Shown: positions 732 to 61,847 of the stretch, one piece after another | How the letters are laid out: each line of letters opens with the position of its first letter | Numbering within the stretch: position 1 is the first letter of the stretch | DNA from: a virus | Virus record (IMG/VR): IMGVR_UViG_3300046703_000247 | Span: 1-64,000 of that record | Direction: 5' to 3' (one strand) | Length of the DNA stretch: 64,000 nucleotides | Notes under the pieces: model-generated | Databases searched by the model: none | Seen by the model: the letters and a program-made list of their open reading frames with translations, nothing else | What the model was told of the DNA's origin: nothing | Made by a program: the position numbers and the translations under genes

Positions 732-786
732 AGGGAAGAAAAGGTTTGGGAGAGAAACCGCAGGGTTTCGCTCCCGAGGCTGCGGC
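732..786 (+). repeat. hairpin repeat copy R1
   Basis: AGGGAAGAAAAGGTTTGGGAGAGAAACC-GCAG-GGTTTCGCTCCCGAGGCTGCGGC, intergenic. Confidence 0.9.
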
Positions 787-814
787 CTAAACCAACGCAG
801 CAGAGGAGTGTGTC

Positions 815-1171
815 ATGAGAGTCAACAAGACATTCACTGTTGGGGCCAACGAGATCAACGTCGCCACCGGCCTTACAACCGCCGCCGCGCGCGAGAATAG
901 CATGCCGGCGAAGCGGGTCTTCATCCAGATGCTGATGGGTGGATCCGGCCTGGGTTATGTGATGGACGGAATCCCCTGGGGGACCGTGGCGGACTCGACC
1001 GTCGACGGCCATGTGACGGCCCAACTCGCCGTCGCCACCGCCACCGCGCCGGGCGGCAGCTACACCGATAGGTCCCAAACGCCGGGCGCCGACATCGACC
1101 TGTCGAAGCTGTGGGTCCACGGCGCCAATTCGGGGGACAAGATCAAGGTCTCCTACGATTTGCCGGTCTAG
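815..1171 (+). CDS. hypothetical virion-associated protein
   Basis: RBS GAGGAG, beta-rich composition, in late operon. Confidence 0.7.
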   Translation: MRVNKTFTVGANEINVATGLTTAAARENSMPAKRVFIQMLMGGSGLGYVMDGIPWGTVADSTVDGHVTAQLAVATATAPGGSYTDRSQTPGADIDLSKLWVHGANSGDKIKVSYDLPV

Positions 1172-1185
1172 GAGGGAGGACTGCC

Positions 1186-59376: not shown

Positions 59377-59411
59377 TGCAAGGGGGGGCAGCCGGGCCGC
59401 CCCCCTTCCCC

Positions 59412-60020
59412 CTACGGCTGATCGACGGGCACTCCCGCCACAACCGAGAGTCCCACTGCTTCGCTCGGCACCACTTCGATGTCGAGGGTTCCGCTGATGG
59501 GTTTGATGCCCTCGCCCAGGTCAGCGTCGGCTTCTACCAGGATCTGAGCGACCCCCAGCGGCCCAACCGCTACCGCTTTGGCGCTCAATCCGTCCTCGGC
59601 AACCGTGAGTGAGACCACATCCGGCATGGAGCTACTCCACGCCGGCGCCCCTTCCACCGGAGCCGCGTTGCCTTTCTTGTCCACCGGCTGGATGGACAAG
59701 TCTACTTCCTGCACATCGGTCAATCGCATATTTGTAACGTCCTCCAAAACATGGCCTTCGAGTGTTGCCGTGAACACGAGCCTGAGAGCCTCGGAAGGAA
59801 TCAAGGCCTCCAGGATCTGGCGCAGTAGGAGTCGCTGCCCCAGGATCTCGGTCTCCACTGCTTGTAAGCGCTGCTCAACAGCTTGAACAGATTGGTTGAG
59901 GTCTTCGAGTTGGTCCGAGAGATGCCCCAGCATCCGGAGAATGCTTGCGATGCCGGTAACCAGTTCCAGGATCTTTGCCATGGCCTTCTGTAACAGCGAA
60001 AGAATCATAGGTCTCTCCAC
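59412..60020 (-). CDS. coiled coil + Ig-like beta domain protein
   Basis: L.IQPVDKKGN.A.V.G.P.WSSS...V.L....DGLSA; followed by GC hairpin at 59381-59407. Confidence 0.6.
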   Translation of the reverse strand: MERPMILSLLQKAMAKILELVTGIASILRMLGHLSDQLEDLNQSVQAVEQRLQAVETEILGQRLLLRQILEALIPSEALRLVFTATLEGHVLEDVTNMRLTDVQEVDLSIQPVDKKGNAAPVEGAPAWSSSMPDVVSLTVAEDGLSAKAVAVGPLGVAQILVEADADLGEGIKPISGTLDIEVVPSEAVGLSVVAGVPVDQP

Positions 60021-60032
60021 GGATTGCGGGTT

Positions 60033-61847
60033 CTACACGAGAGCAGCAGCTTCTTCCACATCGCTGTCCTCATTCTGCTGAGACTCCAAGGGAGCGCAAC
60101 CTGCGGTTTCTCTCCCTTGGAAACCCACTTTTCCCTTCAGTTTCGCGGCCTGCCAGTTCGCCATCAGCACGTACTTGGGATTCACTTCAATCCCCACGAA
60201 GTTGCGCCCCAGCTTCACCGCGGCCAGGCCGGTGCGGCCGGATCCGGCGAAGGGATCGAGCACTGTACAGGGTTCCACTTCCGCCGGCATCAGTGGATGG
60301 GGACACGTCGGCCGCCAGCCGAGGGTTTCCGGCGCGGGGAAGGGGTTGTCGTGCTGGCCAGTTGATATGCGCGCACCCTCGGTATTCAGCGTCATCCTTA
60401 ACTGTGAGAACTGCGACCCTTCCGGAGCCGCCTTCGACTCCAGCCGCGATTCGCGCTCGAGGTGCGCCATCCGATGAACACCCTGCGCCTTCAGATCCTG
60501 CCGAGGATGCAGGTCCCCATTGCCGGGCTTCACTGTGATCCGCTCCCACGGCGCGCCGCACACCGAGCAGCAGCCGTGCGCGCTCGTGGCGGCTAGGATG
60601 CAGGGCGAGACCAGGCGCTCTGGGAACGTGGCAAAGTGACTCAGCCAGGTCGAGGCGCCGCACAGGCAGACCCTGACGTGCTGAATCTTCTTCGATTCGC
60701 AGGCGGGACATTGGCGGGACAGTTTCGACCCGCGTTCACTCCAAGAGTGCTGGCATTCCGTGCAGGTCATTGCCGCTTCGAGTTTCCGGTAGGTGGATTG
60801 CTCGTAGCAGGTGTCACACGCCGGGCACATCTCGACCGCGAAGGGCTGCGGGTTGACCAACATCGCGAGGGGCTCTCCGTCATCGTCCACCAGCAGGCCC
60901 TGAAAGTCGGGTGAGTAGGTTGCAAGCGAGGCGAAGAACCAGTCGGAGTTGCGGCGGACGCGGGAGGGGACCAGTGCGTGCACGGCGGCCGAGAAGCTCC
61001 GGTTCTGTTTGGCGCGAATGCGCCGGTCGGTCTGGTGGGCCGGGTCTTGGTCCAAAAGCATCCGGCTGTTCGGCCCCATGGCTTTCGGGTTGACGCCGTT
61101 GCCGCGCGCGGGGGAATTGGCGCTCGATGCGATCCGCACCGCCTCCTGGTCGTAGAAGGTGGTCTCGCTATTGGCGAGCATGAAGATGTACTCGACCATC
61201 GAGGTCGGACGATCCCTCACCGACTCGGGCATGCCGTTTTGCTTCACCCAGGGGTTTGCTGAGCGCAGATACCAGCCGTCCGCCTGCAGCGCCAGGGCGA
61301 CGCGGGCGGGGAGCATGGCGAGGTCCTTGGGTTTCAGACCAGGTATCGGCATGCGATTTGGCTGAGACGTCGGTCCTTTCCAGCGCTCGCCTTGTGAACC
61401 ACCGCCCGGGCAGTTTCCAACCTTGCCGCCGCCGGTCGCGTAGCAGTCCCCGAGGTTCAGCCAGCAACTTCCCTCTGGTCTGAGCACCCGCCGAACCTCG
61501 CGGAATACCGCGGTCATGTGCTCGACATAGAGCTGCGGTGTGGGTTCCAGGCCCAGGGCGCCGCGCCAGGCGGAGCAGCCGGAGCAGAACTGGCCGGTAG
61601 AACCGTGCTCATCCCTGCCAACCGGAGAGGTTCCGAGTGTGGGGTCCCAGGCGCGCCCGTTTCGTCGCGTCGGCTCTTGCTCACCCCATCTGTGCGCGCA
61701 CATCGGATCGCCGCCCCACACGCTGGGGGCGATGCCGTAGTCTCGGAGGCCCCAGTAGGGCGGGGAAGTCACAACGCAGTGCACCGAGTTCTCCGGCATC
61801 CCCGCGAGCACCTGCAGCACGTCGCCCTGCAAGATTTCAAAGCTCAT
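60033..61847 (-). CDS. DNA methyltransferase, N4/N6 beta-class, with Zn-ribbon insertions
   Basis: VTSPPYW; HFATFP..L...CI; VLDPFAGSG.TG..A..LGR.F.GIE. Confidence 0.9.
   Translation of the reverse strand: MSFEILQGDVLQVLAGMPENSVHCVVTSPPYWGLRDYGIAPSVWGGDPMCAHRWGEQEPTRRNGRAWDPTLGTSPVGRDEHGSTGQFCSGCSAWRGALGLEPTPQLYVEHMTAVFREVRRVLRPEGSCWLNLGDCYATGGGKVGNCPGGGSQGERWKGPTSQPNRMPIPGLKPKDLAMLPARVALALQADGWYLRSANPWVKQNGMPESVRDRPTSMVEYIFMLANSETTFYDQEAVRIASSANSPARGNGVNPKAMGPNSRMLLDQDPAHQTDRRIRAKQNRSFSAAVHALVPSRVRRNSDWFFASLATYSPDFQGLLVDDDGEPLAMLVNPQPFAVEMCPACDTCYEQSTYRKLEAAMTCTECQHSWSERGSKLSRQCPACESKKIQHVRVCLCGASTWLSHFATFPERLVSPCILAATSAHGCCSVCGAPWERITVKPGNGDLHPRQDLKAQGVHRMAHLERESRLESKAAPEGSQFSQLRMTLNTEGARISTGQHDNPFPAPETLGWRPTCPHPLMPAEVEPCTVLDPFAGSGRTGLAAVKLGRNFVGIEVNPKYVLMANWQAAKLKGKVGFQGRETAGCAPLESQQNEDSDVEEAAALV
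60077..60136 (-). repeat. hairpin repeat R25, in-frame in MTase C-terminus
   Basis: rev-comp AGGGAAAAGTGGGTTTCCAAGGGAGAGAAACCGCAGGTTGCGCTCCCTTGGAGTCTCAGC. Confidence 0.85.

Follow-up and report, generated by a model that had tools for sequence, protein, structure and literature searches.

The stretch of DNA analysed in this study (the window, 64,000 nucleotides) comprises the first 64 kb of one 83,233-bp virus record, IMGVR_UViG_3300046703_000247, with a CheckV completeness of 86%, and the subject here is a short hairpin repeat that is present in many copies along this phage genome. The host group of the 83-kb phage is the soil Acidobacteriota (Bryobacterales/Terriglobia). Pfam and PHROGs searches of the phage genes identified a P22-type portal and coat, a large terminase, head-closure and adaptor proteins, together with a PD-(D/E)XK exonuclease, DNA methylases, a DnaA-N-like protein and a small serine recombinase of the resolvase/invertase type (55245-55907, plus strand), and no tRNA was detected by a tRNA scan of the phage. 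A giant open reading frame (ORF) at 29055-46415 on the plus strand encodes 5786 amino acids (aa) with an SLT domain at the N terminus and, in addition, a SAP motif, an Eco57I-type methylase and an SNF2 helicase, and carries copies 12-19 of the repeat in frame. The gene map was obtained with a crude codon-score caller, and the distances from copies to starts are therefore approximate.

The nhmmer profile built from seed copies gave 25 matches at E<1e-9 in the window and 31 in the whole record, and a covariance model constructed from the alignment of all 31 copies (R1) recovered the same 31 full-length matches at 50-79 bits, both of which bear out the 25 copies that the original prediction, made from the letters of the window, had placed there. 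The other 20 R1 matches, at 22.8 bits or less, were the complementary strands of the same hairpins, and nothing else rose above noise. Thirteen occurrences of the apical motif GAAACC-N2-6-GGTTTC were counted, where shuffles predict 0.04, and a repeat search of the window returned families of 46-65-nt repeats on both strands. Seventeen copies are on the plus strand and 14 on the minus strand, at a density of one per 2.7 kb.

Outside the giant ORF, copy 1 (726-795, plus; R1 score 62.6 bits) is situated 16 nt past the stop at 715 and 26 nt ahead of the ATG at 815. Copies 2 (5161-5232, minus; 73.3 bits) and 3 (5455-5525, plus; 67.5 bits) form an inverted pair, of which the left half is G-rich and the right half has an A/T-rich lower stem and lies 29 nt ahead of the ATG at 5548. 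Copy 4 (15650-15722, minus; 67.7 bits) was located 5 nt past the stop at 15651, the A/T-rich copy 5 (16288-16359, plus; 75.3 bits) 18 nt ahead of the ATG at 16371 and copy 6 (18992-19066, minus; 57.2 bits) 22 nt past the stop at 18979. The A/T-rich copy 7 (20378-20452, plus; 54.8 bits) is read through by the 3' end of ORF 20068-20448 and precedes the ATG at 20473 by 29 nt. Copy 8 (24917-24989, minus; 61.0 bits), which overlaps the stop at 24926, and the A/T-rich copy 9 (24993-25064, plus; 69.6 bits), ~15 nt ahead of the ATG at 25073, are the left and right halves of a 148-bp inverted pair. Further along, copy 10 (26379-26448, minus; 61.3 bits) is 9 nt past the stop at 26377 and 6 nt ahead of the ATG at 26450, the A/T-rich copy 11 (27420-27490, plus; 52.8 bits) is 19 nt ahead of the ATG at 27497, and copy 20 (48149-48222, minus; 60.6 bits) is 20 nt past the stop at 48135 and 15 nt ahead of the ATG at 48235. 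Copy 21 (49271-49342, plus; 71.1 bits) is intergenic, the A/T-rich copy 22 (49843-49914, plus; 72.4 bits) precedes by ~13 nt an ATG with an AAGGAG ribosome site, and copy 23 (53437-53509, plus; 50.1 bits) precedes the PD-(D/E)XK nuclease domain, the true start being probably ~50 nt downstream of the copy. Copy 24 (55143-55213, plus; 58.2 bits) was found 40 nt ahead of the small serine recombinase gene, and the methylase ORF 60033-61847 (minus) reads at its 3' end through copy 25 (60068-60141, minus; 56.6 bits), which lies 54 nt ahead of the next start.

Two features of the DNA adjoining these copies were also recorded. The sole sigma-70-like site in the first 20 kb (5128-5157, minus; TTGACA, 18 nt, CACAAT) lies just past the 3' end of copy 2 and is directed away from the late genes. 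A 49-nt stretch occurs at 16244-16292 and 27369-27417 with 80% identity, directly 5' of two gene-oriented pre-operon copies; a small inverted repeat, ATGAA..TTCAT, lies within it, and a promoter or operator function is possible.

The position of the copies is linked to the genes. Relative to the local genes, 18 copies are co-directional and 13 are opposite, which amounts to no orientation bias and is in agreement with the earlier statement that both orientations relative to transcription occur. The centres of 17 of the 31 copies fall in DNA without called genes, which makes up 16.5% of the DNA (p=1e-6). Among the eight non-coding copies of opposite orientation, six are at -2, -2, 5, 9, 20 and 22 nt from the upstream stop (the exceptions are at 112 and 173 nt), and 12 of the 13 gene-oriented non-coding copies are 11-54 nt ahead of the next start. 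The seven copies whose lower stem is A/T-rich all point with the genes and precede a start by 13-38 nt (7/18 gene-oriented versus 0/13 opposite copies; p=0.012). The halves of the inverted pairs are unlike each other, one being G-rich and the other A/T-rich, and the two 148-bp pairs have no common spacer. A replication-strand explanation of orientation was rejected, the orientation alternating along the genome with no single switch.

The eight copies translated inside the giant ORF all lie between aa 860 and 3010, in the linkers of its variable middle, and no copy was found in the SLT, methylase-helicase and C-terminal parts of the protein. These are copies 12 (31640-31711, minus; 79.2 bits; aa 864-884), 13 (31898-31969, minus; 73.6 bits; aa 950-970), 14 (32141-32212, minus; 69.3 bits; aa 1031-1051), 15 (33734-33804, plus; 63.7 bits; aa 1562-1580), 16 (34358-34429, minus; 73.9 bits; aa 1770-1790), 17 (35129-35200, plus; 74.0 bits; aa 2027-2047), 18 (36723-36796, plus; 66.0 bits; aa 2559-2579) and 19 (38009-38080, plus; 64.2 bits; aa 2988-3006). 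Copies 13 and 14 (243 bp apart) are exactly identical over 55 nt; the identity stops at the borders of the element, and the flanks differ. Copies 15 and 16 form the N-terminal and C-terminal borders, respectively, of a domain with a 48% identical counterpart in a 4854-aa ORF of another phage record (G001), and most of the neighbouring segments of the two proteins are not in common.

Three further copies are read through at ORF 3' ends, namely in the C-terminal tail of the portal, whose last 23 residues are encoded by a copy, and in two other ORFs. The five coding copies of opposite orientation (four in the giant ORF and that of the portal) are read in a single frame, yielding proline-rich peptides, and the four gene-oriented copies of the giant ORF have one common entry and exit frame, one of them changing frame at the apex because of an indel. 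Whichever of the six frames is taken, 22-26 of the 31 copies contain no stop, and therefore stop codons do not dictate the choice of frame.

The giant protein also contains, near its N terminus (aa 140-275), a second and unrelated repeated linker motif, ..DPPSFE(A/P)DQP.., and the hairpin element is therefore not the source of all its linkers. Invertible coding segments in the giant ORF were considered and rejected, as no long antisense frame spans the intervals between oppositely oriented copies. A listing of sequencing runs named no RNA holder. In the contigs of the one DNA run, which may be the source sample, the region 15201-35200 is broken at copies; the contig joints, with sides of 30-54 nt running from copy to copy, are read as cross-matches between copies, and no deletion variant was seen in these contigs over that region.

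The unit has sharp borders. Conservation extends from (A)AGGGAAGAA to GGCTNCGGC, at times with a weak ..AAAC tail, and is at background level outside; likewise, information content is at background just outside AGGGAAG..GGCNNCGGC. The unit measures ~55-65 nt, with a hairpin of ~22 pairs. Its base is formed by G-C, a frequent G.G and G.T pairs, above which stand a lower stem of freely varying sequence, an A.G mismatch present in 30 of the 31 copies, and a 6-bp apical stem closed by a loop of 3 nt (17 copies), 4 nt (12 copies) or 2 nt (2 copies). The apical arms are GAAACC/GGTTTC in 16 copies, GGAACC/GGTTCC in 5, GCAACC/GGTTGC in 2 and GAGACC/GGTCTC in 1, and 7 copies have one apical mismatch; the four arm types and the nearly invariant A.G mismatch are thus those named in the original prediction. 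That account had also described G.G with G.T pairs near the base from a few folded copies, of which the G.G was found in 17 of the 31 copies, in a part where the alignment is less certain, and G.T pairs numbered 41 against 8 for A.C.

Compensatory covariation of the apical and lower stems, likewise claimed earlier, was examined in the alignment underlying R1, and pairing proved to be kept by compensatory changes. In a 16-pair structure with 491 cells, 91.4% of cells are paired compared with 79.2 +/- 1.0% in shuffles, two-sided changes number 80 cells against 25.7 in shuffles and are present in 10 of the 16 pairs, and the covariation score is 0.458 against 0.223. None of 500 shuffles matched the observed pairing or covariation score, counts that are not probabilities because the copies are kin by descent; the case is still carried by the variety of arms and by slid controls, in which moving the 3' partner by one column brought pairing down to 60-67%. 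The consensus fold from RNAalifold agrees with the 16-pair structure.

The two strands of the unit are not equivalent. In 30 of the 31 copies the purine-headed strand, which begins AGGGAAGAA, is more stably folded than its complement (mean -26.9 versus -20.8 kcal/mol). The same preference was shown by 17 of the 19 distinct copies taken from four other phage records, and by 20 of the 23 distinct ones in loci of host metagenome-assembled genomes (MAGs) and further IMG/VR loci, although the asymmetry is partly inherited within subfamilies (e.g. those with the GTTTGGG/CCCGAG base), so that independent events are fewer than these counts suggest. The fold advantage amounts to 8.4 kcal/mol in the 13 copies opposite to genes and 4.6 kcal/mol in the 18 gene-oriented copies (p=0.008), and the messenger RNA of the opposite copies therefore carries the poorer fold. 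A larger fold advantage opposite to transcription argues for a constraint at the level of the single strand or the element, and not purely at the messenger RNA level.

The distribution of the repeat among phages was surveyed with an exact-pattern scan of IMG/VR, which returned 8 stretches; all five records searched hold 2-11 R1 matches. The element-bearing phage records that were compared have almost no DNA or genes in common with this phage, matches to G001 amounting to a single 182-bp stretch of DNA and three protein segments, and ten IMG/VR loci with portal relatives (<=48% identity) contained no hairpin copy. Since unrelated phages carry copies and relatives by portal do not, the family tracks the host group and not the phage lineage. 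G011, the source of the best relative of a 440-aa phage protein (64% identity), has just two genes in common with the phage and carries no copy. Two copies in the record G004, at 21283-21408 (plus) and 47595-47719 (minus) (L154:1283-1408 and L155:7595-7719), have a similar ~55-nt insertion in the apical loop, to be read as a nested insertion or else as an extended variant of the structure.

The same exact pattern was then scanned over 185,579 species genomes, giving 35 stretches, 29 of which are labelled Acidobacteriota (Bryobacterales, Bryobacteraceae, Terriglobia and others). R1 matched 18 of 25 host stretches, and five of the seven that did not match carry non-Acidobacteriota labels. Eighteen host loci were inspected, of which 10 belong to an element resembling an insertion sequence (IS-like element) and 8 are solo copies, some of which adjoin ordinary genes (14 nt past pnp; upstream of a release-factor gene). 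Strict apical motifs number 1-12 per genome in five host genomes of ~7-8 Mb each, all those of G010 lying within one prophage-sized stretch, and R1 had no match at E<=1 in 400 kb of chromosome contig C13 of G007. The original prediction had named as one refutation a known host repetitive extragenic palindrome (REP) or miniature inverted-repeat transposable element (MITE) equally dense in the chromosome; this is not the case, the hosts carrying the motif more than 100 times less densely than the phage.

The IS-like element, which belongs to Bryobacterales/Terriglobia, was defined from several MAGs. In G006 at least 11 identical ends were found at contig ends (L011, L015, L018, L022, L032, L034, L039-L041 and L044 among the loci recorded), all sharing one sequence that begins at an ORF start, includes the hairpin and reaches as far as ..TTTTTGGCTAG, beyond which the ends diverge, and another MAG has 4 copies. 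Three full copies in G007 define a 1943-bp unit with one 539-aa ORF (copies at L024:1472-3414 and, in reverse, L037 3439-5381), whose order is the left terminus CTAGCCAAAAATATTTG.., the hairpin ~110 nt inside and opposite to the ORF, ~85 nt, and the ORF; the right end is without a hairpin. In other MAGs the hairpin is ~15-50 nt from the same terminus. Neither inverted ends nor target duplication was seen in the G007 copies. Of 8000 metagenomic matches scored for the 539-aa ORF, 6462 were relatives at E<=1e-10, most of them located on 2-3-kb contigs, and cluster representatives at E<=1e-3 numbered 6182. The ORF gave no Pfam, NCBIfam, PHROGs or PDB-sequence match, alone or as a profile, with weak C-terminal winged-helix hints only. 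The 1943-bp unit could represent an undescribed transposon family.

Known hairpin systems were compared with the repeat. A six-frame search of the phage record with the tyrosine recombinase family PF00589 gave no match at E<=1, the control being positive in 14/14 genomes, and no match to the Y1 transposase family PF01797 was obtained in the same record. Host Y1 genes were detected (12 matches in 5 genomes), and six host Y1 loci had no R1 match with filters off. Rfam gave no match at the gathering score over the whole window, and over 12 kb with 8 copies it gave only a chance miRNA match (E=0.79) away from the copies. Selection on a strand-specific fold had been proposed by analogy with integron attC sites, REPs and IS200 hairpins: the pairing constraint and the strand specificity stand, whereas membership in those systems is not supported, as no IntI-type or Y1 enzyme was found in the phage, the host Y1 genes are unflanked and the orientation is non-uniform.

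As in attC sites, structure is kept over sequence, the fold is strand-specific with conserved unpaired bases, and copies are found at the 3' ends of genes or cassettes; unlike in attC sites, the orientation alternates here, copies also lie inside genes and no IntI-type integrase was found. The subterminal hairpins of IS200/IS605 are similar in being one-strand hairpins near the end of an element without inverted ends or target duplications, but the IS-like element has its hairpin at one end only, and its 539-aa ORF matches neither Y1 nor any other known family. T7-type RNase III sites are intergenic and in one orientation, in contrast to the present 18 versus 13 copies, eight of them in a gene. 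N4-type hairpin promoters, which are short, few in number, placed upstream of early genes and used by a virion RNA polymerase, fit poorly with 31 copies of a 22-bp hairpin, some at 3' ends and others within genes. An intrinsic terminator consists of a G+C-rich hairpin with a U tract immediately after it on the transcript; here a C/U-rich tract is present only in the complementary reading of the unit and is good only in A-rich copies.

Small palindromes that lie between genes and, with unusual frequency, in frame in ORFs are known as Rickettsia palindromic elements (RPEs), of which the in-frame copies add a short harmless peptide to proteins (PMC10969869). The RPEs described there are ~150 bp long, form ten families and inhabit a reduced bacterial chromosome, in contrast to a ~60-nt unit of phages and an IS-like element in both orientations; the likeness is one of behaviour only (eight copies in the giant ORF, the portal tail and two other ORF ends), no sequence relation being expected. 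REPs, bacterial interspersed mosaic elements and REPINs (REP doublets; PMC3116915), which are mobilised by the Y1 transposase RAYT, are short imperfect palindromes with a conserved head and a single-strand fold, located at gene ends in either orientation and often in inverted doublets. However, REPs fill the host chromosome with tens to hundreds of extragenic copies and flank a Y1 gene, as opposed to the blank 400 kb of host DNA here. The six close intergenic pairs are all inverted, with halves that are dissimilar, whereas REPIN doublets are made of like units. Viral MITEs (vMITEs) are likewise small repeats without coding sequence that reach a higher density in viruses than in cells and are common to viruses and their host group, and PMC11602168 lists 99 of them in phages of 'Acidobacteriae UBA7540', among which the hairpin repeat may be included. 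The repeat differs from MITEs in having neither terminal inverted repeats nor target duplication. MITEs have their ends in common with an autonomous element that supplies the enzyme; here the hairpin occurs in the left end of the IS-like element, 15-110 nt inside, and is absent from the right end. Among the papers listed by full-text searches, no title or abstract describes such a repeat in phages of Acidobacteriota.

The interpretation to which we lean, tentatively and with rather less than even confidence, is that the repeat is a structured palindrome of ~55-65 nt, of the REP/RPE/MITE kind, which belongs to the mobile DNA of Bryobacterales/Terriglobia and not to their chromosomes and which is recognised as a folded single strand. 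It is suggested by the sharp unit, the one-strand fold, the fixed mismatch, the exact duplicate of copies 13 and 14, the in-frame copies, the spread among unrelated elements and the presence at the end of a multicopy element. As to the copying mechanism and the protein partner, we infer the following course. The folded single strand would be recognised by a protein, for which the 539-aa product of the IS-like element or a phage replication or recombination function is a candidate, and the unit would then be copied as such, by copy-paste or short-tract conversion. The copies observed survive in harmless places, between genes and, in one frame per orientation, in interdomain linkers and C-terminal tails. 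With still more reserve, we suggest that some may have acquired a role as RNA hairpins at operon borders: the strong G-rich ones past stops in the opposite orientation, and the weaker A/T-rich ones 13-38 nt ahead of starts in the gene orientation.

Several observations weigh against such a mobile palindrome. Orientation alternates in 22 of 30 neighbouring copies (p=0.011) and in 18 of 22 outside the giant ORF (p=0.003), and the close intergenic pairs, four here and one each in G003 and G004, all have their purine heads facing, a non-random position and orientation that looks like function and not like junk. The 4854-aa ORF of G001 keeps a copy at the same N-terminal domain border and in the same frame despite 48% identity. 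No empty site or presence/absence polymorphism was met with; portal relatives reach <=48% identity in IMG/VR and <=41% in JGI metagenomes, there being no empty sites to compare because no close relative of the phage was found, and G002, G004 and the prophage in G010, with identical scores, are apparently one prophage and uninformative in this respect. Among the 31 copies there are no target-site duplications or flanking direct repeats, nor terminal inverted repeats beyond the hairpin, and the phage record (86% complete) holds no candidate enzyme, the Y1 and tyrosine recombinase searches having been blank. Moreover, hosts of the IS-like element hold few solo copies, so that mobilisation in trans by this element does not explain the richness of the phage. 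The orientation-position pattern, together with a copy long kept at a domain border, means that the copies are not mere junk; either some are co-opted RNA hairpins or an RNA function is primary. The link of orientation and position to gene ends, the in-frame copies, the enrichment in phage over host and the identity with the end of the IS-like element were missed by the earlier reading.

A primary RNA function is possible, though we would not expect it to prove right. The copies would then be cis-acting RNA elements of host-type transcription units: in the opposite orientation, a hairpin with a C/U-rich tract would serve as terminator or 3' stabiliser, in the purine-head direction the copy would be a hairpin of the 5' untranslated region near ribosome sites, back-to-back pairs would insulate operons, and antitermination would let late transcription through. 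The excess of copies in non-gene DNA, their distances from stops and starts, the seven A/T-rich copies upstream of starts and the six head-to-head pairs are all favourable to this explanation, as are the hairpin of the IS-like element, located between terminus and ORF and oriented to stop incoming transcription, and the host copy past pnp. It is difficult to reconcile, however, with eight copies in both orientations inside one 17-kb gene, and with the 13 copies whose messenger RNA strand averages -19.9 kcal/mol against -28.3 kcal/mol for the other strand. In addition, the G-rich copies facing the main transcripts have a poor U-rich tract, a generic promoter/terminator scan of 1-20000 flagged none of the six copies there as a whole hairpin, and a conserved family with a fixed mismatch is unlike ordinary terminators. 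Should the copies act as signals in transcription or RNA processing, phages of Acidobacteriota would have in them their first defined operon-boundary signals.

We consider it unlikely that the copies are portable recombination joints, at which genes and in-frame domains are shuffled as cassettes, either by homologous or copy-choice recombination at a fork-stalling hairpin or by a site-specific enzyme. The copies do mark borders in the middle of the giant protein and in none of its conserved-domain and C-terminal parts, the domain flanked by two copies recurs in G001 with the same border and frame among different neighbours, one frame per orientation keeps the joints in frame, and the element is common to unrelated phages of one host group; head-to-head pairs, furthermore, enclose small ORFs of low coding score. 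Nevertheless, no recombinant pair or cassette polymorphism was observed, the lower stems vary between copies and shorten the usable homology, no integron-type integrase was found and the orientation alternates instead of being uniform, and low-scoring ORFs are present away from copies as well. A more far-reaching combination, to which we give only a slim chance, would make the hairpin a module of undescribed hairpin-dependent mobile DNA read by the 539-aa ORF family, which has no known fold and is represented in soil metagenomes by thousands of relatives, and used by phages as a frame-preserving joint for the exchange of genes and domains, integron-like without an integron integrase, even in an injected 5786-aa protein.

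Single-strand initiation signals, in the form of N4-type hairpin promoters or of primosome or priming sites in replication, are very improbable. The strand-specific fold with conserved unpaired flanks and the enrichment in phages would suit them, but the orientation alternates with no switch near the likely origin by the DnaA-N-like gene, copies occur inside a gene and at 3' ends, a Pfam search of the giant protein, weak for such enzymes, found no RNA polymerase domain, and the same hairpin is found in the IS-like element and beside host genes.

That the copies are binding or crossover sites of the small serine recombinase is scarcely credible: a copy does lie 40 nt upstream of its gene here, directly upstream in G003 and ~330 nt upstream in G004, homologues occur in three of four near-complete element-bearing phages, and the apical AAACC-spacer-GGTTT resembles the core of Hin/Gin-type inversion sites, but none of 72 IMG/VR loci of relatives (<=62% identity, +/-2.5 kb) holds the element, the upstream DNA of 10 of them has none on inspection, G001 has copies without a recombinase homologue, the arms covary as would not be expected under a sequence-specific duplex binder, and a 2-nt spacer is found in only 2 of 31 copies, whereas inversion sites need two half-sites at a fixed 2-bp spacing. 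Upstream of a 56%-identical relative of the recombinase (L187:2459-2467) we noticed GGAACC-AA-GGTTC, which is like a classical crossover core and has a 2-bp spacer, unlike the 3-4-nt loops of most hairpin copies.

If the repeat is indeed a mobile palindrome recognised as a folded single strand, it would be a clear phage-borne counterpart of REP and RPE elements, a 60-nt unit more than 100 times denser in phage than in host chromosomes, folding on one strand and tolerated as protein linkers, and it would also be part of the end of a very abundant uncharacterised IS-like element in soil Acidobacteriota. The repeat offers a marker of host group for phages from a phylum that is poorly cultivated and a handle on the gain and swap of domains in giant polyvalent proteins, and the folded strand and the 539-aa protein make up a testable pair for a possibly new route of moving DNA.

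Two further observations were made in the window. Within the 605-aa ORF at 9453-11270, at least seven diverged repeats of 78-98 nt, with spacings of 84, 147 and 243 nt, occur between 9800 and 11000, and point to a protein of ~28-aa repeats, probably a fibre or spike. A 231-nt stretch is present at 11051-11281 and 15109-15339 with 77% identity, at the 3' ends of ORFs 9453-11270 and 14837-15328, which suggests a common C-terminal module.

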